Of a DNA stretch of 54,247 nucleotides, positions 3,824 through 39,100 are shown in pieces (within the stretch, counting starts at the first letter, position 1; each line of letters opens with the position of its first letter). The notes beneath the pieces were generated by a model. The model was not told where the DNA came from, did not search any database, and saw only the letters and a program-made list of their open reading frames with translations. Source of the stretch: Phoronis australis (taxonomy: Eukaryota > Animalia > Phoronida); the NCBI GenBank assembly GCA_002633005.1, contig NMRA01001106.1, positions 1 through 54,247 of the forward strand, in the 5' to 3' direction. Made by a program: the position numbers and the translations under genes.

Positions 3824-3876
<53 letters not shown>
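3716..3876. repeat. Compound microsatellite (TA)n(TATG)n(TG)n
   Basis: Directly visible. Confidence 0.97.
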
Positions 3877-10371: not shown

Positions 10372-10518
10372 ATTAACAACCAGATATCCTTAAAAACAAA
10401 TAACAAGTAGATATCCTTACAATACAAATAACATGTAGCTATCTTTTCAATACAAATAACAACTAGATATCCTTACAATGAAAATAACAATTAGTTATCC
10501 TTGCAATACCAATAACAA
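10372..10518. repeat. ~28-bp minisatellite, about 5 copies (aataacaactagatatccttacaataca)
   Basis: Degenerate tandem units. Confidence 0.85.
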
Positions 10519-12173: not shown

Positions 12174-15100
12174 CTGAAATAGACAAGTTTATAAGCGTGG
12201 ATGGTGCTTAAGATAAAGTTTTATAAAAAGAATACAATTGACTGGCTTGTGTGACAAGATTATTGTAGTTATATTTGAAGGAGAATCATGTCCGCTAACA
12301 GGTGTACCCTATCGCAAGCCGTTCGGCGGAAAACGTCGCCAGTAATGACGTACGAAATTACCACCGAGACTTCCCTCGTGTTTTACGACCGTGATCGTTA
12401 TACATGTATTGAAAGAGTAATTTGAGGGTGAGGTCTAAAGAAGTTGTGCTTTCGTAGTTTTACACTCGCATTTTTTGCTCCATATCTTACGCTCGTATTA
12501 GTAAGCTCGTAATTTTACCAAGACCGGGTCGTTATATTTAGGTCATGCCAGTCAACGCCACTTAAAACTCAGTTGATACTGTTTTGTGGCGCAAATGGTT
12601 TGTTATTCAAATGTATTGAATAAAGAATTCGCGACTTACCACCATCATTTAGAAATTCGACATCATTACACCCCCCCCCGAAAACCGTGTTGAACCTAAT
12701 ATGCTTTTTGTAATGCCATACACTGTGCGACTGTGTGCGTCATCTGCACGAACTGCTAGGAGTAAGAGAAAGAACATTCGCCTAAAATTTGATAGTGAGA
12801 AAACACGGTAACACAAAAAGAAACATTATCAGACTGCCTGCTAGACGTACATTTTGCCACCTCGGTGTGTACTAAAACGGACCAAATTCAAATGCCTGTG
12901 ATGATTGGGTCAGCGAGTCAAAAATATCAGCCAATCTTGGATATTTGTCAATCTTTTGCACTTACATACTTTGCAACCGAGATTTTACGAGCGTAAAATT
13001 ACGGGTGTACAAAGACTGCTTCAGACCTCATGCGACCTTCAAGTCAATTTGTCATTGGATTACTTTACCAGCCAAGTTTCGGTCGTAAAACCGAGCGTAA
13101 TTACTAATCAACAACATCCGTTGTGAAACACGAGTGAAGTCTCTGTCGCAATTACTAGCCTAGTTAGGGGCGACACTTTCCAACGAGAGGCCAACCATAG
13201 TACCCACCAATCCACTGGCAACGTGCCACAATACTTCTGGCTGGTTTACAAAAAACTGTTCCTTATATGGTCAAGCAAGTGTTAGGATCGCGCTATCACC
13301 AAACTGTTCCATGTATAGTCATGTATATGAGTGGGTTAAGCTTGTACCACACTGTTCCTTATATGGTCATATGTGAATAAAGCATTCATCAAATTGTTCC
13401 AAATATGGTCATGTAGATGTGTGGTTTAAGCTTGTACCGAACTGTTCGCTATATGGTCAGACTGTTCCATTTGTTTGGATTATGTTTGCATCAAACTGAT
13501 TTGCAGGGAAGAGATTTCTTTATGTATGCCACAACCTTTGCAAATGAACTCGGGCATAGTAGTTCTTAGCACATTTTGGCAATAGTTTCGTGTATTTGCA
13601 GCGGTGCCTTCTTCGCTGGTTTAGTTTGTGATTCATTACATCCATAGAACAATACACTTAAACTTAACACAGTTTTCATCTTGTGCCTCACAGTTTATTT
13701 GTGCATGTGACAGGGTCGAATAGTATTGCAAACAATATCTGATCATTCAATACCACAGGCCTACCTTTGCGCGAAAGTCGCTCGTCTCCATTTGCACAAC
13801 ACCACACCTGATATCAGCAACTTTAAAATCGCCGTCAGGGTGACCAGCAAAGTGAAGTTGTGTTTCTTTGTTTATCTTCTTAAACCTTGTAAGAGGTGGC
13901 GGTAGAGAGTCCAACTTCTTGCAGCCTTCTATTGAGCGGGGAAGAGGTGCCTGTAAGTCCAACTTCAAAACAGCCACGTCCAGATCATCGTTAGAATACA
14001 CTAGTGAGTCGACACAGCAGCCGGCAACTGACTCGAGTCCAAGCCATTTTGATTTGTCGTAATAAAAGAGCACTGCACTCTTTTTGACTGAAACAAACAA
14101 GTTGACATGTGAAATTCCGAACAGTGTAAAGTCAGGTTACACTGTTTATTTCCATATATATGTAACACAACACTCACATAGGAAAACCAGCAAACTCTAT
14201 ATTTGAATTCAGCGTTTAGAAATAAAACTAACATCGTATAACAACACCGTTCCCAAAGGCATTTCAAGCATGAGTGTAGTCAAAGGTGACCTTTTAATAA
14301 CCCGTGCAAGTTTTACGTTAACAAAAGGTGAAAGGTGCTTTTTGGAAACACGGGTGCATATTATGTTGCTGAGGGCTATCTTTGAAAGAAGTGCTGTCAC
14401 TGAAGAGGCCACCCTCATTTTAAATACCACAGTAAATAAATAAACAGAAACACTACATGATAGCGACCTCCACATTTTTGTATTTTTTCTGGGCAAAACA
14501 AAGACACAAAACTTGAAAATGAACGACAAATTGAAAATTTAAGCAATGAAAAGAGACATCTGAGGTCAAGTAATAAAACTAACGAAGGCCCATGGGTCTT
14601 TGGTCAGGTTGTTTGGATCTCATGAGAGCAATGCCCCCGTCTATTCATGTATAACCTCACACTGAAGTCGTGATCGGTTCACTAGTGCGATTGCTACTAA
14701 AACTCAAGTCAACAAATTTCGGATATAAACCATACTCTGTTATCAGAACGGATTTTATTAACATGCCTATTTGAGAGCGTGAAACGCCCATGTTTTTTAA
14801 TCTTTATTTACATATTGGTTGAGATAAGACGTTCTCCATCACGGCTTTACATCTGATGATAACGCACCTAAACAAGTAATATCCATGAACTTGATTTGAA
14901 CCAACCATGAAGAGTCATTTCTTCTAGACAAGCCTTGTCTGAGATGAGACTCACGGAAAATGGCCTCGACCAAAACTTTACGTAAAAACAAACCGTTAAG
15001 TAAGAGATAATTTTACCCTTTGTTCTGAAAGTAACATACTGAAACATAACAGTGTGCACTTGTTCAATCTCAAGAACAGTAAATCGTACTGAATTTATAT

Positions 15101-18100
15101 TTCTAACTGTTCATTTGATGATTTGAAGAACGTGGACAGTTTCAGGAAACAGTGTGTTGGGGAAAGCATTTGACCTTTCTTTGGATAATCAGAAAATAGT
15201 AGCCTTTGTTTTTACCGTCGTCAGTTTATAGCCTTTTCAAACGCGAAATATTGAACTGGGACTAATTTTGGTCTGCTAGAAATAATCGCAGAAACAAACT
15301 CCTAGAACCTTGTTAGCCATAACACTAATTCCAAGGGAAGATTGTACTGAAAATTGGCGTTCAAGGGCAATTGCCTTGCGACATTCTAGCCCCAAAAACT
15401 GACGGAAAAGGAGTGGGTCTAGGCCGACGGCAGTTTCTGTGCTAAATATATGTAGGAAGTGCGTGCCACGCATGGCGTTCAGTAGTAGTTCCTGGAAGTT
15501 GCTGTGATTAAATGAAATCAAGAAATTTGGTCTCTGCTCTTATCTACGGGAGTCCCGTCATTTTCAGAGCATAACCTCAGACTTGTTTAGTTGGGAATGT
15601 TGGCACGATTACGGGTAACTCTCAGACAAGCAACTTTGCCAGTTTTTATGAACATTAAGCTGAGTGGCAGAGCATTACAATTTTTGTCTAATTTCTTGCA
15701 CAGGTGGATTCTTAAACCAGTGATTTTAGGTATAAAAATGAAGCAAAAATTACACTTTGTGGCCATTTTTGGCGTCTGATTTTTACGGTGGACTCGACAA
15801 GACAAAGAAATGACATGGTTGACTGTTTATAGAAAAACCATCAAGTATACTTTTGCTGAGTTTTGCCTTTTTTCAGGTGTCACGATACTGTAAACAAGAC
15901 CCAGCTTTATTAACCCAGACCAGTGATGACCTCAAAATCAGTTACTTGATCTGTACAGCTGTGGTCTTTGCTGGTCAAGTTAACTCCAGCGTAGCATATG
16001 CTGAGCGTAGCGCTCTGCACGTATTTAAAATGAACCAGAGAAAGGTTTCGCAGAGCGTTACTCAGCAAGAAGTACACCAATCAGGGAACAGAATGCACTC
16101 ACGATCATCGCCGAGTTTTTCAGCAACGTGCCAATTGGTCATAACGTAGTCAGGGCCAACGCGGAAACCTGAACCTGTGCCGGTTTGTCCAACAATAAGA
16201 GCAACTGATGTAAAGGCTGTTGACAAAGATGTGTGGAAATGTGCCGACATCGTCTCTTTGTTCAAATCAAACGCAGGACCGAAGCTACACTGGGGCGGCA
16301 GCTTTCTGGAACTTGTGACAGGAAAGTAATCTAGAAGAAAACAAATGTCAAACCATTTTCCAGTATCATCAATGATCTCTTCAGTAAACATCGAAGTGAT
16401 GTTTATGTCTCCGTTATATTGTGTCACAGGTGTACCTGTCAAACACAACACAATCTACAGAGGTTGACCAGTTCGCTCACACAAGGATAATGATATACCA
16501 AATGAGGTGGCGTGCTGTCATTTCTGAAGAAAAATCGAGGAAGTGACGAGCGGATGATATATTTGAAAATGAAGTGAAAAAGATTTGACATCAACAGAAA
16601 TTCAACATATGTATGAACAAATTCCGTTTTAGTGGCAGAAAACCACTTTGAATCATGCAATTTATTCTGTTCTTTATGTTACATTATGCCACTTTAACAA
16701 TGGACTCGTTCGATATCTCAGGTGGACCATCCACGACTTATTAGAAACTGTTGTCTTCTAGATTTGAAACCAAATGGGGTTCTTTTGCCAAATCGTGGCA
16801 CTCCTTGTGTAATGAGATCGATTAGACTGTATTAGATGCAAAATAAAACTAAAGATGGTGGTAATTAACCTACTAAAGATTACAATTAGAAATGACTGTA
16901 AACTTGAGCGTTGTTTATCTGACATGTTTTAACTAAGTCACTTGGTTAGTGAGGACAGTATCACTGCATTAGACAAAAACAGCTTCTTAATCTATTCGGC
17001 ATGACTTCGATGGGTTAACTTATCAAACCTAAACTACATGTAGAAATTGGTAGTCATCGAGTCTGTTCACACCATGTGTTATTTCACAATCGTTGATTTG
17101 AGCGAGGTGCCATCTGCCGCTATACGAACTACAACACCACCTATTGGAACACAATATACATACTGTATAAGGACGGATGTTCAGACCAAGAACACTGTGC
17201 CCAATTATCAGTCGTAGAACAGCTTGGATCAATTGGTTCCATACACACTGAACTGAATTTATGGTATCAACATCTCATTTAGTGCATTGGGTGAATAAAA
17301 ATCGATAATTTATCATTTAGAAGCTTGATGGGACTAATCATTCCAATTCGTAGTTCGTTAACAGTGAAGTTTACAATTTATGATTGTGCGTAAATAGTAT
17401 AAAGCCAATATTTATGACTTATATTCATACATGTTTACCTGATAGCCTGACGTCAACACCCAGAATTCCCAGCTCACTTTCGTCTCGCTGTGCTCTTATG
17501 TTTATATCTACCCAACCCTCGGGTACTGTTGCCCCGGAAGACTGCAAGTAGTGCATAACAGATCTTCCCAACTCTAAGGACGGATCAGTTGTGGGTGCGA
17601 CTCTCGCTTCAGCTCCCTCAGCAGAACTCGGACGTTGGCTTCCCTGCCTTTTTTTCTTGTGATTCTATAACCAATCATAAAAAGTGCACTACTATGCTAC
17701 CATGGGCTCGGCATGTACACGCGATTAGGAAGAAGCAACGCATAAAATTTAAAAAGCATGAAATTCGTAAAAGTTTATCCACTTAATGAATATTGTAAAT
17801 AATATGAGTATTGACAAACTAGTTAATTTGGTTGAGTAAAGATTATTTAGTTGTGAACAACATTCACGACAACCAAAATTTATCGTCAAAATGACAAACT
17901 AGGGTGTACCTTGAGGACCTCCTTTATTTTTTTAATAGTTTCGGCGGCGATGTTGTTAAAGAACACGTTGCCCCCTTTTCCACAAACATCATAAGCTGTT
18001 TCTCCTGTCTGAAAATTGACAAATGATTATAAGTATTGAATTAAAGGACACATATACAGTATCAGCAGGTACTCATAATGGATAATTTTGAGGATCTTGT

Positions 18101-21100
18101 TGGGATAGATGGACGCAACCTCCCTAACTCAAGTAAGTTTTATTCCATCTTTAGATTAAAAATTTTATCTGAGTCCTAAACATCCGTGGAGAACGAAAAG
18201 GTAATACTCCACTTAAAATACTGACTTCTTTTAGCTGTGGGTTCTTCAAATTTTTAAACAATCACATAGTAACCTGGTTACTACATCAAGTGAATAGTTT
18301 AAATTTGTTAAAAATCCCGTTTCAATAGTCGCTTAGGAGTTTACAAAAAGTAGAAAAGGACTTTGTCAGCAACCTTGGACGCTGTTCCATTGTACCGGGA
18401 CATATAATTACATATACATGTACAACTGTAATGAGTTATGATGCTTAAGAACACTGGTTACCTAACCATTGACAAACATCCAATGCAGATATTGACAGCT
18501 TACATGTACCACACAATTTGACTGACACTCTTATCTCACCGTATTAACAACCGTCGCATCGACACCCGTTTTCAGAAGCAGTTCAACAACTTCTAGATGA
18601 CCACACGAAGACGCGCTGTGCAGCGACGTGTTGCCTCCCTACAAGAAGTATTGAAATTTGTTGACAAACCAAAAACAAGTTTGCACGATATTCAATTGCT
18701 GAATAAACAGCTAGTGCAAATGAAAATTGAATAGTCAAAAAATAAACAGAGTTCAAAATGAAACAGCTATGACTTATTTCAGTCACGTAACAAGGACATT
18801 TTGTTGCCGAACGATTTTGGGCATTACAGAATAGAGCGATATGACACTCTCGGTAAAGACGGACGAGCACGGAAATAGTGCATACAATAGAATTTATTTT
18901 TAAGATTCAGGGTGGTATGCCCTAATTGTTCACGCATCACGTGGTCGTTGGTGTTTTTCCATAGCATCTGACACACCAGCGTGTGTTGTTACTTATTTGT
19001 ACACTCGATTTGTAAATTTTGCTCCTAGATTTCACTCAAGTTGTTTCAAATATGTAACCAACAGCTTTGTATGTGGCGCATGCTCGTTAGGTTGTCTAGG
19101 GCCCAAGGAAACGTCCGAATTGGCTACCTTCGTAAAATAATATCTCAAAATAGCTGGTCCGACTCAGAAACTATTTTCATGCACTGTTCGCTAACACACT
19201 GTACGAAATTGTTTTTGAAAGATGACATTTTTGCATGACAGGCTGTCAAAAAGGATGTTCACGATTTTCATTAAATTTATGCCAAAAAACGAAAAGATGT
19301 TTAGAAACAGTACTAAATTTTGAGATCTCATCTTGAAGATTTATACGAAATAAAATCTGATATCATTGTTTTGTTATCAACGTACCTTTCCTTTCAGATA
19401 AATCACGTGATGTAAATAGTGGGAGACTAGTAAAGAGGTAAATTTAATTTTTTGTAGTTTAATTACAGAAAGTATAAACATTAACTCTGTTAAAATCCAC
19501 ATTTTAGACACTTTTTATAATACGCAGACTACTCAATCAGGCCCACAAAACCATAACACACGTGTATAATGGTAAGCGAAACTGCAGCAAAGATATCATG
19601 TTGCTGGGTGGATAGTATCAAGACACTATCACCTTTACAACGGGATTATGTTTTACAATCACTTGGCTCGCGTTTATGTCGATGACAGGCGGGAATGCAG
19701 ACCGTGCCATCGGTGTCAACACTCAGCAAATGAAGCACCTTCATGCAAAGTGTTTTCGATTCTTGGCGGAAGCCTACATCGCAGAATTATCTGTTGGCGA
19801 TCTGGTGACACTGAACCGAACATCGGCTGGCCGTCGCATGAGTGATGAACTCTTGCTGAGTGGCCGATGTGTTCACGACTCTTTAGATTGTCGTAGGGTA
19901 AGAAACGTCGGACAAGCATTGGTTTGCATCTCAAAATGCCTTAATCACAAATCAGGCGAAGCTCAGCCTATATCGCGTCAACTGAATTCGGTCAATCTTT
20001 TGTAGTAGTGGGAACAGCTTTCAGTAACCAGTCTGTGTTTCAGTAATACACAACGCGTATTCAGAATGCCACTGACATTTATTCGACCACTAAAGCATAC
20101 GCTGTATGAGATTTGTTTACTTGGCACATTGTAATGCACTTTAATTCTAAAGAATAGTAAACGAAAATTTTTGAATAAATAAAGAAAATTGTTGCCCAGT
20201 GCAGAGTATTGTGTGTTTTACGCATTTAGGCACTTGCGCCTATATCCGAAATAACTGCCATCAGGAAATTTTCATACCCAAATGTTTCGCACAAACGCAT
20301 GCATAATGCTTCTCTTATAGGCACAGGTGGATATCCTTTCATGTTTTGCAGGCTCTAGAATATTTCATTTTACGTATTGGCCTAAATACGCGAATATAGG
20401 GTAAAAATACATGAAACACACAGACACACTGGCTTACATGCCAAATGTTCAGAATTTATAAAAGGAAACCAATGAAAAAAAGTTTACTGACACCCCCACA
20501 GTTATTGTCTCAGCTCTACACCTTGGTTCACTAAATTTCCTAGGTAAAAGTGCCCTAAAATATCAAAATTCTAAAATACTTAGCACTTTTTGGAATATAC
20601 CGAACTTGTTGCTTGGGGGTCTAGAAGCTCAATGTTCTGAGTATGTTTTTTATAAATTGGCAGATTTTATTCGTAATTCGGAGAATTGTCGATTTTCGTG
20701 GAAGCATAAACATGGAAATCATAGAGCAACGAACCCTTCACATGTAGTTTCACTTCATAAACGTCAATCAAAAATTAAAACATACACACATTTCCAGTTC
20801 TCAACATGTTCATTTATACAATTTTGTGCATCTTTCAGTAAGGAGCTTCTTGGCAATTTATCCAGTTCTGCGATCAAGAATGGCTTAAAATTTGCACGGA
20901 AAAGATAATGGAAATTGAGGTTTTCACAGCCGAAAGTGCGGGCCTAAAATTCACAATTTATAAGAAAAAAGATTGTGCAAGTGGCGGCGAAAGGTGGTTA
21001 TGACTGGATAGGTGGCACATGCTTAAATACATTTTACAAGCAAGCCATGCCAAATTACGTCGTATGGAGGTCGGAAGTTAACATCATTACAGAGAACATC

Positions 21101-24100
21101 AAGCAAACCACGCCAGGAACATACACAGTCGTGCAGTCGGATCAAAAATAAGACACTTTGATGGGGTTATTGTAAATTCAAGTAATCTGCAGTCCATTTC
21201 TCCTCTGGTGAACTATTTTGTTTTCCATGTACTAAAATGCTCACACCTAAAAATTAAAGTAGGTTGCACCATAGCCATCGATAAAAGTATATATTACCCG
21301 ATAAATTTCATAGAAAAGCAAAGTGATTGAATTATACTGTAATATAGCATCTTTAATAATGATGGAAGTGACTAAATACGAAAAGGGTTGTCATTCTATT
21401 AGTTCATACATTTGAGACTATAAAGTGGAATGCGAATAAATATTTTAAAAATATTTAATTAATTTTAATATTAAAATGATTCGATTTAGTCTCAGTCGTA
21501 ACATGAAATCCATCTTAAGAAATGCGAGTCTCTGATCCTTTCTGAAGATATGAATATTTTTGTTCATTCATTTAAGTTTTTGCGTAATTGCATTTTCACG
21601 AAAGCGCTCGTCTAGCGGAAGGTTTTGACCAGAACGTTTATTCCAAAAAGCATTTGATGCGCTGCGCCGAGAAATATGTCCTGGTACCCGAAATACGATG
21701 GTACTGTGAGGGGTGAACCAAACTTATTTGATGGCTTTCAAACTAAAATGTTTACGTATTTCTTATTTGTGTTCAAGATCCACCATACCAAACATGGCGA
21801 TTTAGTCTTGTCACTTTTGTCTTGACCATCTAGCATCAACAAAGGGTTTTGAGACAAAGATCCACATCTTGTAGTACTTGGTAATTATGAAATGGTTTTA
21901 ATTAATTACTAGAAGATGGGATTCGACACTTTCGTTGAAATTGTTAATAGGAATAGACATTTCAACGGAATATTTAGATATTCATTTATTTTACTCACAA
22001 GGAAACGATTTTGATTGATCCTGATCATAGCACACATTTTGTGTGTGGGCATTATGTATTCCACTAGCAACTGCAACACAAGCGACTTTATTCGCGGAAT
22101 ATCTTCGTATCGCACTGACGTGATTAAAAACCTGCATAGACTTTATGAGGTGATAAAATTAAAATCTATGTCTGTGTTCGGCGCCTTATGGTGTGGTTGG
22201 TTTTTTAGTTAGTATGCCAATAGTATGATCACACCAGCGACTCTGGTTTCACTGCGTGTTCTGGGAAGGTACGTGCAGTGAAGAAGTGACTCTTTGTATA
22301 ACTCCACGTAAAGAGGTTGTTCATTTTTGATGAGATATTTATTATGAATGAACAATTCCTCGAACTCAATATTCATTTAAAACACGTTTATTGGAACATT
22401 TACTAAGCTCGGAGTGCAGCACTCTTGAGATACCTTGTTTACGGCAGTCACCTCACAACTGCCTTTATTGACAAGCAGCTCTACGACCGCTGCCTTTCCA
22501 CTCTGCGACGCCAGGTGTAATGCTGTATCTCCATTCTAAAGTGAACAAAAATGAGAGAATGCCGGTCATCCTTAAATATAGCGAAGTGGGTGTGTCAAGA
22601 GGACGTCACGTTTTATACCTTTCTGTTCCAGAACTTCACCATCAGTTGCATACTTACTGTATGAAGCCGGTGACTCAACAGAGCACGACTACACCTGACA
22701 TTTGAAATCAGATATAAATGAGCGATATTTCTTAAATGCTGACCTGTTTTAGTCACACGATTGATAATATGGTTTTAAATATCACAATTTGATTCTATGT
22801 AGTACAACAGAGTCACATTAATTTAGTGAGTGATATGGAAATGCAAGTAAAGAACCATTGCTCATTGTATAACTCCAGGTGACGAGAAAACTGTTTCTAA
22901 TTACTTAATGTCGCGAGCACGTCATGTCACGTGCACGTCACTCCACGTGCAGTGGAGACAGCATTTACAAACAAAATCACAATTTGTGATTATCTAATTA
23001 AAACACGCAATAATTAGCCTAGTCACGTATTGTGTTCATCAACCTGTGTGTCAATAATTACCTCATCACGAACATTCACCTTGGCCCGGTGTTCGATGAG
23101 ACACTGTACGATGGCTGTATGACCCCCCTGTGCTGCCTGGTGCAGCGGTGTGTGGCCCTCCTATGGAAAGCAGAAGACATTTAATTTGACATTGTTGAGA
23201 GACATTAGATTATAAAAAATATCAACAAAATTTGTTACTTAATAGTTTTAATCATCTCTTGTGTAAACAACTAGTTCAACCAAACAACCTGTGTGTCATT
23301 AATTACCTGAGTACGGACATCCACTGTAGCGCTGTGTTCCACAAGACACTTCACTGTCTGTGTATGACCACCCTCTGCTGCACAGTGCAGCGGTGTCCAG
23401 CCCCCCTATGTAATATATAATGGAGATGTGTGAATGGACGATCAACGTTTAGAGCAAATTAACATACACAGGGGATCAGTGAACTTGAAAGGTGACATAA
23501 ATGAAACATTACTGACCCCTCTAAGACGCTACAATACTTGTAATGATTTCAACAGGAAAATGTTGAGTTTTAGAACAAAACAACAGAGCGTGTTCTGTGT
23601 TCCCTGTCTCGTTACAGGCCGGTAACACACAGCAAGTAATTGGGCGCTGTAAAGTGTTGGACAATCAAAATAACGTAGAAAATAAATCTGAAACTAAATG
23701 AGGCGATCCAGATCGTCTGAAGAAAACTATTGTTTGACGAAATGTAGAATATATATAGGTAAATAAAACAACAATAATGAATCAACTGAAATGTTCGGAT
23801 GCAGCTTTGGCAGTTCTCTGTTGGAAAGCAGACGACATTTATTTTGACATTGTTTAAGGACATTACATTGGGAAAATATCAACAAAATTTGTTCTTCAAC
23901 AGTTTTAATCATCTCTTGTGTGAACAACTAGTTCAACCAAACAACCTGTGTGCCATTAATTACCTCATTACGGACATCCACTGTAGCGTTGTGTTCCACA
24001 AGACACTCCACTGTCTGTGTATGACCACGCCGTGCTGCCCAGTGCAGCGGTGTCCCGCCCCTCTATGTAATATATAATGGAGATGTGTGAATGGACGATC

Positions 24101-27100
24101 AACGTTTAGAGCAAATTAACATACTCGGGGGAGAGTGAACTTGTAAGGTGACATAAATGAAACATTACTGACCCCTCTAAGACGCTACAATACTTGTAAT
24201 GATTTCAACACTCAAGTTTTACAGGTGATTTTAAAACGTTGAAGTAAGAACAGAACATGGTGTAGACGTCGACTGTCAGAAATTACTGAGCGCCTCCATA
24301 ACTTCACAGCGACCCCTCCATGTTGTGTTTATACATCGGTTTAACGGCTTCCTGTTTAATGTAAAGTTGTAATGTTGAATGGACGATTACCTTTAAGAAT
24401 AGAAAAATATCAACGTTAAGTCGCCAAATATATTGTTGACACAATTCAAACCTCACTGTTTCTTAAGACGCATGTACCGGGTACAGATTGAAAATACATG
24501 TCGAAATCATGAGAAATAAAAAGTGTATTTACACACAACATGTTTAGTTAAACTTCAGATAGTCTACAGCTTTGTAACAAAGATAACATTGTCTTAATTA
24601 TAAAATCGTCTCAAGTAGTTTCTATTACCTCGTTTTGCTTGTTAACATTAGCGCCTGCTTTACACAAAACACGCGCCACCTCTGTATGTCCCCACTCTGC
24701 TGCACAGTGTAGTGCTGTGTAGCCGCCCTGCAGAAACAATAAACAAGTTATAGCAAACTTCACAATCATTAACTTCACCGTGAATCTTAATTACTCATCA
24801 CGGAAACGTTGAAATAACACAATTGTACACACAATAACTAAATCTACTCTCTGTTTATCATGCAATATATCAGTTGTCTTGTAATAGATCATCATTTATA
24901 AAGAACAAGTTTACATCGCTTTCGTAGTATGTTTGTTAGAGTCAGAAATAATCCTCAGAGCAAAGATTTGGCATGTTCATTAAAAATATGGGCGACTGGT
25001 TGTAGCTAGAACAATCATTGTTATTGACAATAACATGACCATGATCTTCACATTTAATAATCATTTTTAAGAAATCAATTTCATGAGAGTAAATGGTTTA
25101 ATTCATTTTTCGTTTTTAGCCAGATGAACAGGACGAAATTTAATTTGCTGCAAAAATGTTGACACAAAATATGATGTAATAGACATTAATGTGAAAGTCA
25201 AATATACTCTATTTGAAAGCTGCAATTACATGAGTAAAACTTTCGTGGTCGTCTGGTATCTTTTAATTAGGTCTACCGCAAAACAATTCCTTCTGGACGC
25301 ATGAATTGAAAAAACATACATGTACATGTAGTCAAACTAATTTATGAAGTACGGTTTCATTTTTTCCTGAGATCCAAAATAATTTCTAACAAATTAAAGA
25401 TAGGAACAATCGGAATAAAAGGATAAGAGAACATCAATATAGGGTGAATATGATATTGGCATGGGGTACTATCAAAACGAAACTGAAGTCTGAAGATGTT
25501 TAAGAAAATATAAGTTGGGCAATGTTTGGTATAGGGTTTGTTACAAGCCAAGAACACGGGCACTGGGAACACAATTCCACTTGTCTCGAACAAAATGCTA
25601 GCAGGAACAATATCCTGGAAATGATAAACCCTGCTCTACAAATTAAACACATGAAGAAACACATTTTACCAAAATCAATCTTCTTATCAAGATTGCTATT
25701 CAGAAAATCAATCAATCTTGTGGTTCCCATTTCGACGCAAACCCAACTTGTTCTGTTCTTGAGACGACGTGGCAGTGGTCTGGCCAGGCGAAGCGTTGCT
25801 TTTAAAAAGAGCGCTTTTCCAGACAGTTTTCGCGTGTACACGCGATAAATTGATACATTTGTCAGTTCTTGAATATATTTAAAGGGGCATTTCATTATCG
25901 CAAGAAATCAATTAAAGAGAACGTGACTAACGAAATAAAAGATGTTGCAATTTGAGTTTTTGACATTAAATTGACTCTTTCTACGCACAGACGTTCTAAA
26001 TGCTGTTTCGACAAGGATACAAATTTCTATGTTGTGCTAGAAAATTTTGAGATGATCGCTGATTTACCTCTTGAGATGGTTCTCAAAGAGAGAAAGGTAA
26101 AAAATATGTGGACTCAAAGAGCTTCATATGAAACGGTAATATCACGACCGCTTTAATGGCATGCAAACAAGGACTACCAAAAAGTTCAACATCTTGAACA
26201 TAAGCCGCTTAAACTACACGGCTACATGGCAAAATATGTAAAAAAAACTTACTGATGTGTACATATGGGAAATAATACAGTATAATATAGTAATAGCTCT
26301 CATACCAAAAATTATAACATGAACCGTAAAACATAAGTACAAAATATGGGAAATGATGCGTAATTATAGCAACATATTGCACCGTAAAACTAGTGCTTGT
26401 TTGAAAAATATCTAAATAAATCTTTAAAATTTAATTGTTTCTTAAAATCACTCAAGTAATACAATGCGTCGCGTCTACACCAGTACATCTATTATAGAAG
26501 ACCATCTGGACATCAATAATTAGACATGCATTTGCACGTCAACACTGTACTTCATTTCACTAGAGAATTCAAAATCTGATACAGAGCGATAAAAATGCCG
26601 CCGGATTGAAATCAAGCAAATGTCATTGCGTTCGTTTTAATTGTTTTGAAAAATAAATATTGAGTTCACAATACATGTACAGTGTACATTTATTAGTGAC
26701 CTTTTGAACGGAGCATCAAGATTAAATAACAAAATTAGGCCTATGTCACTTTCGCTTACTTTTTGACAAGTGTAATTCCAAGACAAGATCTTCAGTAGGG
26801 TGACATTCACTCGAAATGATTAATCTCATCATCCAATTTCATCAACCGAGTGCCCAGGAAACATCAAAATACAGCCGCACAACCATGACAAGAATGTTGC
26901 TAAAGTGTATTTTAAAAACAGAGTTACGTCGTTCCCGTTAACTAAGACCTATTATTGAACTCAGTCTCGACACATTAGCATATTGCAATAGTAGTACTGT
27001 AGAGACCAAAATTCTTATGAGAGCACGGGTTTTGGCCACTCGTATCAAGTCCATGTATGCAACTTAGAATTTCCAACATAAGCGTACTGAGATTTTATAT

Positions 27101-30100
27101 GTAGTACACTTCTCAGCATATACCAGGCAATTATGAAGCAACTCATGTGGGTCCGACCATAATTTTGTTGTTGCGCCGAAGCCAGTTCTGGGCCATGGCA
27201 GAATACATGATAAAACGTCACAAAAGAGCGACGTTTACAAAAATTCTGGAACGATCAACTTACCAAAGTTTGTGGTGAAAAAAATGAATTAATTTTTTAA
27301 GTAAAATGTCTTGATTATTCAATTACATTATCTCAGATAAATTTAGTATCGCATTGCGACACTGCTTGATCCTGTTGTTTTTGTGCACGGTCGAGGTCCC
27401 ATCAGGGGATAATGATTCGGAAAAATAAAGTAACATAATGTTTGAACATGCGTCTCGTTTTTCTTATCGCAAAAGACACAAAGCGTGTAAATTTCAACCC
27501 TACATCTATCAATAGCCAAACGACGAACACGACTTCTCTTTCAGCAGGCAAGTTTTGAGTTGGTACATGTAACTATTGCTACTAACATGTATGAACAAGC
27601 AGACGTAAAATTGTGAGCGATTAATAATATATGAAAATTTTTTACTCCTAGTGTCTTCAATTGACTACGTCACTGATTTTTAAAACTCGCTTGGAAAAAG
27701 TACTGTTCCAATTGAAACGTCAGCTAAAGATAATTAGAAGAGATGTTGCGGGTGGCTAAAATACATGTACCGTGGTTGTTAAGAATATCCAAACATTGAC
27801 GCCTTGGTGGTTGCATAGCACAGAAACATGGTACTTGCTTTTAACGTCTTCTTTAAACGGCGATCATTCGTAACAACGACCAAACTAAAGTTTGTGCCTA
27901 CAGTGTACATGTACAGTATTCGTTACCTTTGGAAGTTTTCGGAACAAGCGCCAACAGCTCTACTAATCGCCCTCTTAACTTTTGGAAGCCTTCAATAAAG
28001 CGCCAACAGCTCTGGCATGCCCCCACCCATAATTTCACTCACTGAAATTTATTTTCAAAACTGCAAGATGTATTTAAAATGCAGAAACCGGATCGTGATG
28101 TTTCGAGTCGCACGGTATAATTATGTGTGCAGTGATCGAAGGAGACATTGTATTGTATCCTGTTAGCGTACGCGTGGTTTGAATTTGTCACTTACGCAGT
28201 CTATAGTGGGTCCCACTCTCATTTTACTTACCGGTAACAACAAATTCATTTTCTAAAAGAGCAAGTCTTTCATCAACGTTCAAAAGCAAAATCCCGGATT
28301 CATTTTGTGCCTAAGAAGGTACGGCCTTGCCATAGTGACATGCATGCTAGGGTCACGTGTTGTTTTGAGGCTAATCTATTTTCAGCATACTTACATGTAT
28401 ATGGCACTTACACAGTGCTGTGGTGGGGCGTAGGCGCACGTCGGCGCAGCCAACCACCTTTAAGCATTTGAACATAGCGCCTATATCCACCGTAAGACAC
28501 GTTCAGCGCTCAAGGTGATACGATGGGCTTTGGGCGACTACATGTACTTACCTTTAATTTTACCACAACAGCACAGCACGCACAGTGTATCCGTGCTAAG
28601 GGAGCAAACTCGAATTACCCAATAATGGAAACCCGCACGGAATAGGTATTATTTGAAGCTTTTTATTTGATGAAAAGCTTATAATCGAAAACGTAAACAG
28701 CATTCCGTTCTTAATTGTTCGTGATGACCTGCCGTTTGTTGGATAACTGTTTGTCCTCTAATTTCTGCCCCCAAATCGATAGCGGTATATGCACAATACG
28801 TCATTCAGCTAGGAAAACGTTTTGCGGATTTTTTTCGACAGCATGTTTTTAGTCAGTCGAGTCGTAAAATTTGAAGAACAAACAAATGGAGGAAGATTGC
28901 ATTCAGAGTAAAAGCATAATGTATATATCTTTGCTTCTTTAACGACTTTGATTACAGTAACATAGCAGATCAATAATAAAAGAGTCGAGCGTATCTTTTG
29001 AACTATATGTATTACTTTCTTCTAGTTTACGATGCATATTTAGTAACTCAAAACGGTTAGAGAGCACTGGCTCAACTTTCACTTAGGCACAAAAACTTGC
29101 AACAAATTCTCTGAACTCACGAAAGGATGTGCTATAGTACGGTAGATATAGAAAACCCTTACGGGAAGGTCAGCCGGCAGGGAATTATTTGATTTGCATA
29201 ACAACATGCGCATCTAGGGCATTTCAAAAGCGGTCGAGGAAAACAGATGCATGTACATCAAACATGAAGAACTCAGTTATGCAAGCTGGAATTTGGGAAT
29301 ACTTAACGCCGAAGGTAAGAGCATTTTATCTAAACATTTTCTCGATGGCCTAAAAATCAATTTGGCGCATAAAAATTGCGGGTAATTTTTGCGTCCTGGA
29401 ATTTGTGACAGCAAGCTGGGATTTTGACAATGTCCCAAAATGTGGAGGTAAGGCGAGTTATTATAATTTTTGCTTGTGCCATGACCACAATGTTAAGTAT
29501 TGTCTAAGGATATAAACTATTGCTTGGATAAAGGCATTTCGTAACAATACCGAACAAGTGATACAACAAAAATAAACGCAAACCAAAAACAACGCTTTTT
29601 GCTCAGACCACATACATGTAGCAAATAACCCAGTCTACTAGACGTTGACTTTATAGTCGAGTATATGAAGCCATATATTTTTATTGCTTTACTGTGAAGC
29701 ACATATGCATGCATACACGGTGTATGGGCGTGGTACATTTACATGTATCTATACACATAAATATACACCTGCATGTGTATTTAATCAAGAAAAGTTGATC
29801 ACAAAATGTGACAAAACGACTAAAGCAATAAAAAATAATTGCTGCAAGTATACCCGTAAGTTTATTGATATATCTTATGTGTTTAACATTAATCTAAATA
29901 AAATGCAATAATACTATTTTGTGATTTCAAAACTCTGGAATACTACCTTTAAGTTAATGTTTAAATGAGGAAAGTCTAGCTAAGCAAAAATAACATTATA
30001 CGCTAATACTTTCTAAGATTCCGAAGAACCAAACAGAGCTACTTTACAGTGTAGTTGATAAAGAAATATTCTCGTTGAAGATATGCTTTAGCCGACAATA

Positions 30101-33100
30101 ATCTAACCCATACCGCTTTTACAACACGGAAACTACCCAAAATTATGTTCATCAGTTTCTGTGAAATCAGTACAAATACACTGTAGTACAAAGAGCATAA
30201 TCGATTACGCCATTTTGAGTAAACACTGGTAATGAACTTGTGAATCGGTCTACATTGAAAACATTTCATTTGAGTATCTTGAATATGTGTAACGCAATTA
30301 TTAGTTTTTTCTAATTTATATTTTCATCAGTCACACTAAGCGAAGATTCCGCTCAGTTTCGCAAGAAAGTGAAGTGTATGAAATCATTAATAACACTTTT
30401 CTGTGACTTTGTGATAATCTGATTAATACATTAAAGAGGACATTGGGATTCCAAGTAGAATCTGTTGATAAGCAAACGGATCTTTTATTTTTAATACTGT
30501 ACTCGGAAATACTTTGCTATTGACGATCAGTTTTCTCGAAGAATAAATCAAACCCACTAAAATGTAGAAACGTTTTGACAACCACGTTTTGTAAAAATAG
30601 GTTCGCTCGAGCCCCCCGAGCCTCCTCTGGTGCGCGCATTTGGTAACAAAGTTAACATATTTCGTTAAATTTTGAATCTGTAAGTTTTAACATTTGCCAC
30701 TTGGGGAATTGTTTGTGAAAATTATATCCCGGAAAATATACGTTTCACCATCAACCACGTTTGGATTGACAACTGTGCAAATATTTTGCCTGGAAAAAGT
30801 GAATACACCGTAACAAAATCTAGCGCAAATTTGGTGGAAATGTTGAACAGAGTGTATAAAACCATAGGCAACTGTGAATGTTAACATCAAATGACTGAAA
30901 GGTACGAAAGTTTTCGGCGTTCCTTTATTGTAACGGCAAAATCTGATAAATTGGCGTGCAGACAGAATTGTGAGCAAATCTGAAAAACCTGCAAGTCTTC
31001 CAGGCAACTGCGCTTACGTGATCGATGTTACTTAGAACAGCTCATCCGGAATCTGTGAACCAAGACAAAGTCGTTTGTCCTTAACTGCTGGGATTTTCTA
31101 CAAATCTTCTGTCACAAACCTAGCCTGTATGTATTAATACTACGTCAGATAAATATTTATCAGCTGCTTCAGTCGGAATCATCATGACGAAATACATGTA
31201 CGCAAGGTCAAATCGGAACTGTACACCTGAAATCTAATCGTTTTAATGAATGCCCCTTTAAATATTTCAAACAAGTGTTTCGCTGTAGCTAACACGTGTG
31301 CACGTAAGAACTGCCGTGCAAAGCGCTGCTTTTTTAAAGCGGAGCACGCGTCGTCATTTCAACTCATGGAACGACTTAAAAATTAGGTTTTGGAATCTTT
31401 GAATAGACAAAGGTCTTGCACAGAAGGTTAATTTAGATGAAAATGGTTTCAACGGGTTTATATAAATATGGGTTTTTAGAGCATTTGTTACCCGCTTACA
31501 TACTGATTTGAAGGTCTCCCCCGTGCCTTTTGTCCCAATGCTGTCTGTGCAAAAGGTTTTACACCCTCAGGAACTTTATTCTTCCTCCAATAACCTATTT
31601 TGATATTACCATACAAATGTATTTCGTGTTCACCCGGTATTGATGTCCCCTCTTTCCTCTTTATTTCGTTTGTTCCTTACACAAATTTGTAAGAGGTTAT
31701 TGCATGGTGTTCAGTGGAAATTCGCTATAGCTTCATTAATTTATGTGATTTTTCTTATCAATTTATAGTTGTCTGTCGAACATGTACTGGTCTGGGATAG
31801 GATACTAATAACCGCGACCCAGAATCCTGACTGTAGACAAGGGCGTGTGTCAGGTGAGAAGGCACCAACATTGGCAACCGTCGTTCCAAAATTACGTGAA
31901 GGTAGCAAAAAGTTGGATCGGTATTTACTATGGAAGACCTAGCAGATGGTTTAAAAACTGTGAAATACGAAAAACTTCCCTGGTTAGATGGATTTCCAAT
32001 GGATGTTTTTTCTGAAAATCATTGCTACCTACATGTATGTTACAGAGAACTGCTAAGTACACCTGTAGTTAAAACAGACGACCCACTCAATTACAGGGTC
32101 AAGATATAAACACGCTCATTCCTGAGAAGAAAAACACTCGTTGTAAGCTAAAGAATTGGAAACTCTTCTTTTTGCTTAATGCATGTTTTTCAGGTGTTGT
32201 TGCCGATCGAGTTAAAATGCAGTTACTCCCTGATATTCAAAAGGTCTATTTGGCGGGACGTTAAATATGAGAATATACATGCCTTCCTTGGACTACTGCT
32301 TCCAATCTTTTTCATGCGCGCACCCAGCCTTTAATACATGTGTATGGGGGCTCGAATTTCAGAGGATGTGGACCTTTTACATACAAAAAAGCCGATGGAC
32401 TAAAAAACGGGGTACCACGTCCAAAGATGCGAATTGTACGTTTGTGCCTTTTTAGTGGACTTTTTGTCTCATTTTTTCGGACTTTTTGTTTCTCTGAGGC
32501 GGACCTTTTAGTCCACTTCGCCAAATGGGAGGCTCACTCCCGTTGGGTGCGCGCATGAATTTCATGAGACAAATAATTCTTTTTTCACTAACTTTGCAAA
32601 ATATACTAGAAGTTGGTTTGAAGCACTATTAGAGAATTCAAATCTTGTTCTAACGCAATATTATACATTTCCTGAACTCTTTTCAACCAACCGCGGTTGT
32701 AGACTCTGTCTCCTTATTTTGGTTATATGCAGAGAGTAGTAGGCATCAGAGCCATCCACATACAACACTGTTGTAGAATATGTTATTCTTGGAATGGAGT
32801 TGCTGCAAGATTTGGGGTGCTGTCTGGACGTTGTTTAAACTAGTGCAATTTGCTGCACTTGTGACATTTTTCTCCAGATACTGTTCAGGAAAAAATCATG
32901 ATGCAAATGAAACGAATTTGAAAATACGGAGTGCAAACTGTTGCAATATACTGATGATGTTGCTCTTCTCGAAATCTAGGAAAGTTCACTCAAGTCATCA
33001 CTCTCATTAGTCGACAAGTCTGCAAATTTTTCAGACTTGAATCTCAATTTTGATAAAACTGTCTGTGTTTAGTGAAGCTGTATTCGGACCTCTAACACTT

Positions 33101-36100
33101 TGTGTCCAATGTAAACCTGACGCAAGAAGTAAGCATTTGTTTCTTTTCATATTGGTCTAAAATGCTGCCAATTGTACACGATAGTGTTATAGATTTAAGC
33201 TTTGATAATACCAAATTTGGTGCGTCTTTTTTCACTGCATCCATTCTTCGCTTGATTTTGCTTAGAAATGATTGTCTATGACATGGTGGATTGAAGATGA
33301 CGATTATCGCATTTTTAAAAATACTTTAAAACGTAAGAAACACTTTAATCCACAGTGATCAAGACTCGTGGGCTGAATTAATGTCACATCTCCTAATGTA
33401 CATGTAAACTAATAACAATTCTTTTTAAATGTTGAGCCTTATTCCGCCTCAGAGAAACAAAAACTCCGAAAAAAACGAGACAAAAGACCACTGATAAGGC
33501 AGGAACCAACTAAATTCAGCGAATGCCCAAATCATAGCTGTGAACGTACGTGCACCCTGTTTTTTCAATAAAGGTACTCATTCTCAAAATTGGAGCCCGC
33601 CATTTTTAGGCTGGTTGCATGCATGCACCTTATCATTTGGTCTATAATGTGACAAAGAACGAGAGGTGTAACCTACCATTGAGTTGAAATGGTAAATTTT
33701 AGGCGGGTTTACCAATTCCGTCAAAACTAAATTGTATTCTAAATTTTTTCGAACTCGTTTTGCCTTCTTTTCAAGTGCAGACACCGTGCATGTTGTGTAA
33801 CATGTTTACAGAATGGTTTGAGCCGACTTTTGGTTCACTGATTTGGCAAGGCGAACAAAATTAACTCATGACTTTTTATAAAATCACCAGATGGGAGATA
33901 CCAATCATATTTTATGTTCTCTTTGCTTGGATTACTTCACAAATAAAGCAACATCTTTTAAGATGTGGGTATTAAAATAACATTTGTTTGCGAACAGTCC
34001 AGATCATTTGCCAAATTTCCAAGTCGAAGAGACCCTACCACATGTCACACATTTACTAGAAAACCATCATCGATCAATGTTTGCAACCTCACGAACGTAA
34101 AATCACCCGTGAAGAAATTGTGGAAAACACGTCAATTCGGTACGTAGAATACGATGTGCTGCGATTGAAAGTATTCTAATCACTTTTGACTGCAATTAAG
34201 AAGCCAGCCTCCCGTTCAGTAACGCTAGGACCTCGCTAAAAGCAAGACTTCGTGAAATTACGTGAGACATGGCCGTGTGTTTTAAATGAGAACACGTGAT
34301 TTTGGCTAGATTTTAGCTAGGTCCTGGCGTAGGTCCTAGCGTTACTGAACGCACGTCTGTTTTGAATGAGCAGCAAACAGGGTTGCGCCGCACGTTACAG
34401 TTGTTTGCGTGACTTTCTCGTGACCCCCTTCGTTTGTCATTCTTTGCAGTGTTTCACAGCTGCCTTGTCTCACTGTGTGTGTCATCAGCTTATACTCTGT
34501 GGTGGCATTCCTGCGTCATTTTATCTTCACTTGCGAATGAAACAAGTACATGTACATGAATGTTTCGAAATATCGTGTGTCTTTTAATTATGTTGCTAGG
34601 TCAGTTACTGTATCTATGTTCAGTTGAGAGTAGAGTTTTGTTCCGAAAGTATGAACGCAACGGAACAAAGACTGTGAACAATGAAAAGTGTCGTGCATTT
34701 AACAAATTCTGTATAACCGAAAACTTTCTCCCGAAGTACCATCAGTTCAAGCTACACGACCGGGCAGCTGATAACGAACGGTTCACATGGGACACTACAG
34801 GCGCAAGCTTGTCCAACATGTAAGTATCCAGCCTCCCGTTCAGTAACACTAGGACTTCGCTAAAAAGCAAGACTTCGCGATTACGTGAGATATTGCCGTG
34901 TATTTTAATTTAGAGCATGTGATTTTGACTTGGTTTTAGCTAGGTCCTAGCGTAGGTACTAGCGTCTACTTAACGCACACCAGCTTATGCTCTGTGGTGG
35001 CATTACTGCGTCATTTTATATCCACATGAGAATGAAACAAGTACCCCGTGTGTTTCGAAATATTGTGTTAGGTGTACCTTTTGATTGACCTATCGCAAGT
35101 TCCGCCCCTTGCGAAATGTCGACAAACAAACAATAAATTTTACCTAGCGACGTGTTGTTTGTCGGGTAAAATGGCAGCTTGGAAACGAAGGTGTTTCAAG
35201 AATGCTGCATTCTGATTGGTCAGTAAGCCGTCACCCAAAATCCTGGGGATAAGTCAATTGTGACGTTAGGTCAGTTACTTCATCTATGTTCCGTTGAGTG
35301 TAGAGTTTTATTCCGAACATATGTACGAAGCGGAATAAAGACTGTCAGTAACAAAAAGTGTTGTGTGTTCCAATATGCAGAATCGATTAAACATTCATGT
35401 AAAAAGGTGATTGGTCCGACTATATAGCAAATAAATAATTACACCAATATAAAGATATGCCTCTATTGATCATTAATTTATTCAACAAAATTCTACTGAC
35501 AGAAGACAACCTTCTATTTGAAACTGGGATTATGGTACACAATTAGAAAAGAATTCAGAATCACTGCAGTCTTTCTTTAAAAGTGAATCAAATGTACAAT
35601 AACCTCATTTTCAATAACTTAATTTCACTTTGGTTTTATGAGTGAAAAGAGTACTACATCTCTCCTGTTTAAAGTTGTTCATGAGATACGATAACAATAT
35701 GAAAAAATGGGTTTAATGTTGGATAATTAATCCCCATTTGACAAGGTTTCACAAGATCTCTTCTTGTACAAATTTGTCTCTTATTGAATATTGCATACTC
35801 TGCATACGCTCTTCACTTCCCACGTGACATATAAATGTATCTATCTAATCGGGTAGTACGACCACTTGTAGATGACGTATTTTCTAAACCAGGTCTTGTT
35901 TATGAAGGGGTACAGAAAACTGGTCTCCCTTTTATTCTCTACATCAATTACAGACTTCCAAAAGCACCCATGACATAGTCAGTGATAAAGCCAAATTTTA
36001 TCCAAATCTCGAAACCATCCCAAGAACCAACTACATGTACAACTGAATCTACATGTACATGTAGGTTAGGCTCAGGATTCGTAAAAGGCACACACATGTA

Positions 36101-39100
36101 AACTTCAAGGTTGAGATAAAGTGTTCAACTAGAATTCCCAATTGTACACTGGCCTACATTGTATTCTTATTTGAGTCTGGATGGTGAAATTATTACCCAA
36201 AAACACTGGTAAAGACATCTAACCATAATAGAAGATGATGAAATGTCCTTTAAACCACACTGACGAGACCGTGCTCAAAAAAAATTCTAATCAACTTACT
36301 GAAAATTGTACAATGTATCGCATCTTTAATGCAAGTTTTAAATCGTCTGATAAGTACATACATGTACAATTTTAACGTTTTGACTATGGTGATATACTGC
36401 ACCAAGTACATGTAGATTATGCGGGAACATTTGCTTGAGCGTGAAAGACTATATTATCAAGCTTGCAATAATCATTACTGGTGTCAAGAAAGGGTCGAAT
36501 ATAGTCAAAAATCTTAAGTCGTCCAAAATGCAACTGTAATGAAAATTGCATTTAGGTAATAACACCTCAAGTTCTCAACAAAGTAAATAACATAAGTAAA
36601 ACAAAATTCGATCTGGGTAGAATTCAATAACGCTTGGAACTCGCTAGGCTACTAGTGAGATTACGCCGTGTATTTTAAAAGAGAACGCGTGAATTTGGAT
36701 AGTTTTTCGAAGCCCGAGACAGCTACCGATCTCTACCGGGGTCTCTTTCAGCATGCCTTCTCTAGTTCCGCCATCTTACAGTCGAGCCACTCGTAAATCC
36801 ACAATAACCAAAGCATAGATACATGTCACACCCTCCCAATATACACACGGAATTTAGAAATTATATATCATTATTAAGTACATTTTATACAATACTTTTT
36901 CTTAAAGAATAAAGTCTTTCTTCCTATAGTCCTATACCGCCGCACAACAACATAGAAAATCTGTCAACAGATTCAGGTCAAGATTATTGTTTAACCCTAA
37001 AAAAGTCGGACCCACTTTTCAAAAACTGTCTCTCTGGTGCGACTGTAGTCTGCCCAAATCGGCCAGTTTCTAATTGTTTGCACTATCATCGATCGTTTTC
37101 GGGATCCTTCTGGCGAACCCTGGAGACAGTCGACGATATTGCACGATATTGGTAAATATATTTTATGATCACTGATTCTCATGACTATCCCAATAGCATC
37201 TATAAACTGCTTCTTAGTAAAGTTGCCAGCATTTCCATACTAAACCGTCTTTATACGATAACTTCATTATATTTTTTCTCACCGACATACTACCGTAAAT
37301 CAAGAAAACATCTGCTATATTTACAATTTTTGCAGCTAAATGTGAATATTTTGTTATTACAGTTGTAATGTTACTACGATGTTCACCTGTTGCTTTGGTT
37401 AACAGTATAGAGTGTTGATATAGAAATATTCAACATAAAACCAGGAAAGCAATGCCATTATGATGAAACGTGTAACAATGGTCGTTTCTTTAAAAAGGTG
37501 CACTTCAAGCCAATGATGATCATACGAGCGTTTATGTGTGAATACTCACCCACGAAGTAAGTTCTTGGTCCACATCCCACCCACGATTTATATATTTCAC
37601 AAGTTCAGAACAATTGCCATTGTTTGCAGCTGCCCAAACCTGAAAATAATAACAAAAAACAGATTTTAAATCACGTAGTCTACATTCACTACCAGCATGG
37701 AATCATCCTTACAAGCAGAGAGCTTTCGTAGATGATATGAACAGTCCGGGAGTGCTCGGGTTGCTCATTGATCTTGACGCTGAAGACTATAGGAAAAACT
37801 TTTTCAAACTGTGACCAATGCTCATATCAAAGCTTCATAATAACCCTGCATTTACACAAACTTTAAAAACGAGAAACACATGTATCTGTCTCCTTCTGAC
37901 TCATTGTGTCCACGTTGACCTTCGTGTCCATTTCACCTACTGAAACCAGTTTAACACCATTTTCATTTCCACCTATTATGTTCAATTTCAGCATGCTGCC
38001 TACTGCAGTTAGTATCCTGCCCTCTCAAACATTGTGTTGGGGTAGGTATTAGCCCTTCGGTACCATTTAGCGGGGGGCATCGTCTTGAGTTGTTATTTGC
38101 TCATTCACGTACATGTAGCCTCTCGGAGTGTGTTTGTCGTTGAGGTATCGGCTCGGGTATATATTTATTAAGGATTTTGTGGCGTCATCTTGTTGTTGTT
38201 GTTGTTGTTGTTGTCATAATAAATCATAGAAATACTAACAAAATGACAGCATTTAAAGCGACTGGGTGGGTTTAACAAATTAGGCAACGTGGACCACCAC
38301 CTTTATTATAACCTTGTATCAGCAGTGCTGCAGCGATGAATTTTGTGGGACTGAAAACCCGCGAAACCCTGTGAATCAGCGTGAGCTTAGAATTTTGGAC
38401 TATCAGAAACGCAGACAACGTGGAACTCATATCCTTTATTTCACCAACTACTGGATTTTAACTTGACGTGTCCTTTGACTTAGATCCTCCCCGCGACATG
38501 ACACCATCACTTGACTTTACTCAATGTCCCCGCCCTCACTCTACCTGTTTTGCCACCCCCTTCCTCCTTGCTCGTAACAATAAGTTCTCCGTATCATGCC
38601 AGTTCCCATTTTTCTAATTCCCTGTCGTCGGTACTTCTTTTTTACTGTTTGTTCTTGATTCTTGCCCGTTCTTTGCTTAAGGTTATTTGAGACCCTCGAA
38701 ATATGGTCAAATCTTGCTCACGTTGGAATACCATATCTCACATACGGTATGTGTCATCGGATTCATATGAATCTCTCAGACATAGTAACTGATGCGATGT
38801 TCTCCAAAATCTTGTTAGTAATTGCGTTTCATTCTTTCCACCCGGGGCTATGAAATGTAGGACTTTCAGGATGATTATGAAAAAATCGAAAGGGGCATGA
38901 AACTAAAAGGAAATTATAATTTACAAAACTTTAGTACATTATTTGAGACTTTATTGTGTACATTGATATCGAACAGAATTCAGTAATGTTATTGATACCG
39001 TACATATAGTTTTGCTATGAATGTAGGTTTTATGCTTAAGTTTTCTAAAACGACATAATCACAAGAACCCATTACTTCAAATTGGTATCATGTCAAGAAT

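Follow-up and report, generated by a model that had tools for sequence, protein, structure and literature searches.

Probable diversifying selection on the binding face of twin ankyrin exons in a phoronid gene with a predicted trypsin-like protease domain

Introduction

To our knowledge, the means by which invertebrates, which have no antibodies, diversify intracellular recognition is still a debated question. A contig of Phoronis australis (NMRA01001106.1), analysed over its whole length of 54,247 nucleotides and called the window in what follows, raises this question at the level of single codons: it carries two neighbouring and very similar ankyrin exons, and it has to be asked what kind of protein they belong to and whether the differences between them are the mark of selection for new binding specificities. 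Both the diversification of the ankyrin binding face, in fungal NLRs, and the shuffling of repeats encoded by one exon each, in brown algae, are already known; were an animal gene to have the two features and to couple its array directly to a serine protease, the known designs would gain a compact sensor-effector of the NLR-free kind. The gene described here likely encodes a fast-diversifying recognition protein, possibly one that serves immunity.

An expressed gene with one exon per ankyrin repeat

The window is DNA of the animal eukaryotic type, with GT-AG introns and a GC content of 32-48% per kb. The gene bearing the twin exons lies on the minus strand and its spliced transcript is supported by splice joints in 3/3 RNA runs, the RNA evidence consisting of raw reads from three runs with the same species label, of each of which 18-19% was read. 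An N-cap is followed by six ankyrin repeats, after which a C-cap and a linker lead to a predicted trypsin-like protease domain (Table 1); joints present in all three runs lead from the ankyrin part to the linker and from there through the protease exons. The spliced model has an open frame of 637 aa, the putative first exon being excluded.

In the test for the ankyrin repeat family (PF00023), the six repeat exons scored 34-44 bits, the cut-off being 21.1, and each repeat (6/6) occupies a single phase-0 exon. The N-cap exon is the sole match in the window to the motifs of the loose read ends at 24718/24719, and its final three codons, which are part of the first hairpin, differ among reads. A search with twin B returned one generic ankyrin protein, 45% identical, among five candidates, and a Pfam scan of the linker exon gave no match. 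The intron of 12.8 kb that follows the N-cap exon contains several dispersed direct repeats (34257-36707; 53-110 nt, 74-90% alike).

Table 1. Features of the twin-bearing gene and of the duplicated unit (positions in the window)
Feature	Position	Strand	Remarks
Candidate first coding exon (M-D-T-K)	37920..37931	-	ATG in frame with N-cap exon, then GT
Ankyrin N-cap exon, 30 aa	37550..37639	-	AG/GT, phase 0
Ankyrin repeat 1 exon	24629..24727	-	Pfam Ank 44.1 bits; read joint 24060/24632
Duplicated unit, copy B	23821..24210	-	~390 nt: acceptor flank, exon, donor flank
Ankyrin repeat 2 exon, twin B	23964..24062	-	Pfam Ank 39.2 bits; RNA joints
Spacer between unit copies	23555..23820	.	carries high-copy interspersed repeat, ~23668-23800
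Duplicated unit, copy A	23161..23554	-	acceptor flank, exon, donor flank
Ankyrin repeat 3 exon, twin A	23307..23405	-	Pfam Ank 39.0 bits; RNA joints
Ankyrin repeat 4 exon (C)	23062..23160	-	joints 22535/23062 (3/3 RNA runs), 23159/23306, 23159/23963
Ankyrin repeat 5 exon, 34 aa	22434..22535	-	Pfam Ank; RNA joints
Ankyrin repeat 6 exon	18540..18638	-	Pfam Ank; joint 18637/22433 (3/3 RNA runs)
C-cap-like exon, 33 aa	17910..18008	-	joints 18006/18540, 17666/17913 (both 3/3 RNA runs)
Linker exon, 75 codons	17439..17664	-	RNA joints
Protease exon 1, predicted catalytic-His motif	16103..16330	-	joints 16330/17439, 14087/16103 (both 3/3 RNA runs)
Protease exon 2, predicted catalytic-Asp motif	13765..14087	-	ESM Atlas match; RNA joints
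Protease exon 3, predicted G-S-S-G catalytic-Ser motif and stop codon	11823..12173	-	joint 12173/13765 (3/3 RNA runs)

Other elements were found along the window. Short high-copy interspersed repeats lie at ~14370-14444, 23668-23800 and 28413-28484, with a summed contig depth of 3400-8500 per bin and with reads on both strands. At 1480-1860 of the minus strand lies an open frame in which tandem units of 36 nt (1693-1802) encode Pro/Thr/Val-rich repeats, perhaps the final exon of another gene; the Pfam scan of the ORF at 1479-2246 gave no match. Three diverged direct repeats, 70-80% alike and spaced by ~435 nt, occupy 2174-3130. Inverted repeats were seen at 32472-33474 (32-nt arms, 939 nt apart, 97%), and at 48864-48955 and 54046-54142 (hairpins of 43 and 40 nt), and these are possibly the ends of non-autonomous transposons. 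Finally, there are minisatellites with units of 70 nt (50537-50888), 29 nt (4548-4698) and 28 nt (10349-10518). Rfam gave 0 matches.

A recent tandem duplication

The twins are minus-strand phase-0 exons of 99 nt each, with AG/GT borders. The preliminary description of this locus had reported that they differ at 10 of 99 nt, in nine codons, without synonymous change, and that the intron on the acceptor side is nearly identical in both; the recount agrees on each point. The codons concerned (B/A) are 1 (R/G), 3 (G/W), 8 (W/C), 11 (R/E, by two nucleotides), 12 (R/G), 19 (E/K), 25 (N/S), 32 (N/T) and 33 (E/Q). All 10 changes are non-synonymous, with none at ~25 synonymous sites, and the protein identity is 73% over 33 aa, exon C standing at 61%. 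The acceptor-side flanks have 4 mismatches and 1 gap per ~148 nt; those of the donor side have diverged more (12 mismatches per 142 aligned nt and 5 gap columns), and the divergence of the flanks is uneven along their length.

The twin exons arose by a tandem duplication of recent date, within an expressed gene. Against either twin, exon C shows a dS of ~0.5, with 9-10 synonymous changes, and a donor site similar to theirs, from which it is read as an older duplicate of them. The donor flank of copy B stops at the equivalent of the exon C acceptor (23821-23815, minus strand), with unrelated sequence and the high-copy repeat beyond, and this end probably marks the duplication breakpoint. In the spacer, the bin of the high-copy repeat has a summed contig depth of 8490, with loose read ends at 23668, 23714 and 23792.

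Changes concentrated on the binding face

An ankyrin library has been described in which repeat positions 2, 3, 5, 10, 13 and 14, forming one outward surface, are randomised (PMC3308923), and DARPins are described as binding through the randomised concave face (PMC8229355). These positions correspond, in order, to codons 33, 1, 3, 8, 11 and 12 of the exons studied here. It had been claimed that the changes lie mostly on the binding face, and this is borne out, since the six library positions all differ between A and B (6/6); the other 3 of the 9 changed codons (19, 25 and 32) lie outside them.

The test for selection compares these codons with the duplicated introns. The comparisons all refer to one pair of exons, picked in a scan, and are uncorrected: the hypergeometric P for 6/6 face codons is 7.6e-5, the 7 changes per 18 nt of the face codons against 16 per 290 intron nt give a Fisher P of 9e-5, and against the more diverged donor flank alone (12/142) the Fisher P is 0.0015. 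The framework, with 3 changes per 81 nt, evolves at the intron rate (P 0.78). The face codons have therefore changed at ~7-fold the intron rate, an excess found neither in the framework nor at synonymous sites.

The absence of synonymous changes tells much less. Under neutrality, 10/10 non-synonymous changes have a P of 0.055, 0.041 or 0.031 at kappa 1, 2 and 4, and under an omega of 0.2 a P of ~5e-5; the count by itself rejects ordinary purifying selection and barely neutrality. Moreover, synonymous change is limited at codons 32-33 and 1, which adjoin the splice sites. The bare argument from 10/10 non-synonymous changes was dropped as too weak (P 0.03-0.055 against neutrality), and the positive selection proposed in the preliminary description finds its support in the excess of the face over the intron instead. 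Taken with the variation in the reads described below, it is likely that diversifying selection acts on the codons of the ankyrin binding face.

Repeat variation among transcripts

The joint and letter evidence comes from the joints listed, 15 of 153, and from 12 of the 216 between-letter rows; owing to their construction, the read tables show changes next to junctions, and all ankyrin rows that were decoded belong to run X8. In that run 11 ankyrin-to-ankyrin joints were decoded, 8 of them from rows with letters and 3 from rows without, and 9/11 differ from the window while 2/11 equal it, each changed codon altering the amino acid. In exon C, codon 1 is E in 58 reads, W in 28, C in 27 and S in 23; twins start with V (45 reads), E-C-P (15), S (12) or G, and end with DK, ME, TQ or NE. 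Two alleles cannot supply four residues at a single codon within one run, which means either a pooled run or paralogs, and the read variants have to be taken as alleles and paralogs together. Furthermore, in the three consensuses listed for the loose ends at 24718/24719, which were decoded by hand and have an agreement of 0.64-0.84, the hairpins between N-cap and repeat 1 differ from that of the window and are 1-2 residues shorter.

The number and order of the repeats also vary between transcripts, as seen in twin-after-twin and B-like-to-C joints. Among the joints listed, two go back along the gene, 24060/23962 (45 reads; B-like after B-like) and 23407/23313 (28 reads; A-like after A-like), from which it follows that arrays exist with twin combinations absent from the haplotype of the window. 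B-like and A-like units are joined in the reads at 23397/23963 and 23407/23969, the latter joint (13 reads) showing a B-like unit with an A-like end. B-like-to-C joints outnumber A-to-C joints in 3/3 RNA runs, which implies either arrays with a single twin or the skipping of A. The variant hairpin residues and the additional tandem twin units strengthen the claim of diversification made from the sequence of the window.

Variation is not confined to the ankyrin part. Of the 40 variants listed out of 1811, 9 fall in coding exons: 7 in the protease exons (4 synonymous, 3 conservative), one synonymous in the framework of repeat 1 and one K to E in the C-cap. The protease region varies too, as an insertion/deletion with compensation is present near 13934-13939 in the majority of reads, and within the C-cap exon a deletion of 6 nt, at 17942, was counted in 119/162 X8 reads. 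In the same run, 140 reads continue beyond repeat 6, at the loose end 18538, with a C-cap that has diverged, being ~80% like that of the window over 30 nt and having several synonymous changes; to judge from their letters, these reads probably stem from a paralog with a common ankyrin array. The summed contig depth of DNA run X1, which is not a copy number, is 135-221 at the twin unit as against 11-16 at most protease sites. Paralogs of the gene likely exist, and copies of this kind, with different C-termini, may be the source of the read variants.

A predicted protease at the C-terminus

The fusion to a protease is a new element, absent from the preliminary description. In the 637-aa model the predicted triad, His405, Asp450 and Ser560, is intact and in order; we take the Asp and Ser motifs to be those of the trypsin-type family. 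The exon 1 fragment gave 18.3 bits with Pfam Trypsin_2 (E 0.004), under the cut-off of 27.6, and its His region aligns with a serine protease in the PDB (3k6z, E 0.002), while the Pfam scan of exons 2 and 3, each taken as a single exon, gave nothing. In the ESM Atlas, exon 2 had a first match of 0.91, with 113/256 features in common, and the 10 best family-bearing matches all belong to the trypsin clan (10/10). Single-sequence folds of two lone protease exons reached pLDDT values of 42 and 30, too low to be of use. These lines of sequence evidence are consistent, though fragmentary, and a trypsin-like serine protease of the His-Asp-Ser type is predicted for the C-terminal domain.

Searches for homologs with single protease exons were blank. 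The word-index search gave 0/65 and 0/16 candidates, the PDB sequence search for two of the exons 0 matches and 1 weak unrelated match, and the viral contigs 0/25 matches to the protease exon query. The lone HMMER match among 1.84 billion representatives, a bacterial surface repeat protein of 4841 aa (P0001) with no matched stretch, was set aside as noise, and the one metagenome contig among 155 stretches (L001), bacterial-looking and with one 8-residue word in common, was rejected. No FAM111 or other true homolog was obtained from these single-exon queries in mostly microbial libraries and, given the composition of those libraries, the blank results are no proof of novelty.

As regards the borders of the domain, a start of the first protease exon at 16436 was rejected, as the reads use 16330. 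The frame is open upstream of this acceptor (16436-16331, minus strand), to an in-phase AG at ~16437, which is possibly an alternative acceptor that would add ~35 residues before the protease.

Explanations of the diversity

The explanation that we consider, on balance, the probable one is that the twins are a recent tandem duplication whose face is under diversifying selection, in an intracellular sensor of non-self with a predicted protease switched by the ligand. The phase-0 exons of one repeat each would allow unequal crossing-over or conversion to gain, lose and swap repeats with the frame kept, and novel face variants would be favoured since they change the specificity. Binding of a ligand, which would be of pathogen or other non-self origin, could free the protease from inhibition or cluster it, and the active protease could then cleave either the foreign protein that is bound or a host substrate that acts in death or signalling. 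The role of an immune receptor is proposed by analogy with known systems. A wider form of it, which we put forward only tentatively, would be a naturally occurring DARPin library of an animal, namely a cytosolic receptor family in which the ankyrin cassettes of one exon each undergo duplication and exchange between paralogs and may be skipped in splicing, with many binding surfaces per individual wired to a trypsin-like effector as an NLR-free immune system.

The selection could also be real and its agent another. The array might track a fast-evolving host or selfish partner (an allorecognition, gamete/germline or transposon-encoded protein) and target the protease there. The signature expected in the sequence would be identical, and fungal HET-type repeats are described as serving allorecognition (PMC4986451); however, the several residue types per codon in single runs and the likely paralog family would fit broad pathogen recognition better, and we consider a partner of this kind rather unlikely.

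That recent selection is overstated, conversion tracts or exon swaps having imported old face variants from a family pool into A and B while the flanking introns were homogenised, seems improbable. The B-like units ending as A and the twin-after-twin joints are in line with such a patchwork, as are the probable multi-copy family and the patchy divergence of the flanks, but tracts from distant copies predict synonymous changes, of which there are 0 at ~25 sites as against 9-10 in the comparison with C. Even so, the variation of the pool would still lie on the face, so that selection would be shifted to an earlier time and not abolished.

Diversifying selection of the face also has to be set against relaxed constraint, under which the surface residues of a redundant copy drift, the core being kept and the lack of synonymous change being due to chance. 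Surface positions are variable in all ankyrin repeats and 10/10 non-synonymous changes are borderline under neutrality; drift, however, is capped at the neutral rate, that of the intron, at which ~1-1.5 changes are expected per 18 nt and 7 were observed (binomial P 3e-5 to 4e-4, and 1e-3 even with 10% divergence), which makes this explanation very improbable. Finally, that A and B represent a single exon whose two haplotypes were set in tandem by the assembly, the artefact named in the preliminary description as what would overturn its claim, might be suggested by the high polymorphism of the species (the best DNA datasets share only 0.47-0.54 of sampled words) and by the excess of B-like-to-C over A-to-C joints, but the reads that join B-like to A-like and twin to twin, together with the hairpin variants in RNA, exclude it for practical purposes.

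Relationship to known repeat proteins

No animal ankyrin/trypsin-like protease with a hypervariable face was found in the papers searched, although supplementary domain-architecture tables could list such proteins. A close parallel in the way the array works is found in fungal NLRs, whose ankyrin arrays are described as polymorphic in repeat number, with the selected sites on the inner helix and the hairpin (PMC4986451); the phoronid array shows the same diversification of a binding face. It differs from those described in having only two near-identical repeats, an N-terminal position of the repeats, one exon for each of them, a trypsin-like protease as predicted effector and no NACHT/NB-ARC. 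The identity of A and B (73% over 33 aa) lies below that used by Dyrka et al. (at least 85% aa identity over at least 100 aa), and haplotypes with more twins may differ in this respect. The central NACHT or NB-ARC NTPase of the NLR/STAND proteins is absent, and the RNA joints connect the C-cap, linker and protease exons directly, which leaves no room for one; identity as an NLR was rejected on this ground.

In the brown alga Ectocarpus, candidate pathogen receptors are described whose repeats occupy one exon each, are duplicated and shuffled as exons and are under diversifying selection (PMC3341825), all of which recalls the phoronid gene. Their repeats are LRR or TPR with ROC-COR or NB-ARC, whereas ankyrin repeats and a predicted protease are found here, in a genome of animal type. 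Repeats and proteases are fused in bacterial gasdermin-associated proteases too (LRR, TPR and WD40 fusions), which have been proposed to couple ligand recognition with cleavage (10.1101/2021.06.07.447441). The proteases there are caspase-like or CHAT (subtilase in fungi), and the word "ankyrin" is absent from the text available, in contrast to the ankyrin and predicted trypsin-like combination of the phoronid. No gasdermin was noticed among the features of the window.

As regards the protease, FAM111A/B share with what is predicted for the phoronid protein a C-terminal domain of Trypsin_2 type, an intact His-Asp-Ser triad and the lack of an evident signal peptide; an antiviral role is described for FAM111A, and invertebrate members without UBL domains are mentioned (PMC9798293). 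The triad spacing is 45/110 here as against 54/102 in FAM111A and 54/106 in FAM111B, and the ankyrin array stands where these proteins have PIP/UBL (PMC9798293), the pair of UBL domains found N-terminally in vertebrate FAM111 being replaced by ankyrin repeats and a linker without a Pfam match. In view of these differences in spacing and N-terminus, and in spite of the triad in common, filing the gene as a FAM111 was rejected. Expansions in corals and other invertebrates (GT1-ANK; CHAT with TPR/LRR/ANK) likewise combine repeats with an enzyme effector, are often devoid of NACHT and vary in copy number (PMC12314368, PMC8195603). A trypsin-like effector on ankyrin repeats and hypervariability of the face at the codon level, as found here, are not among the features described for them in the text consulted.

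Finally, the nearest counterpart of the variable face is an artificial one. The six positions randomised in the DARPin-type library (PMC3308923) are six of the nine codons that differ between the twins, and the number of repeats varies in both; the diversity of the phoronid array is natural, and three further codons differ in it. Natural selection would thus appear to have struck the same six positions that protein engineers picked.
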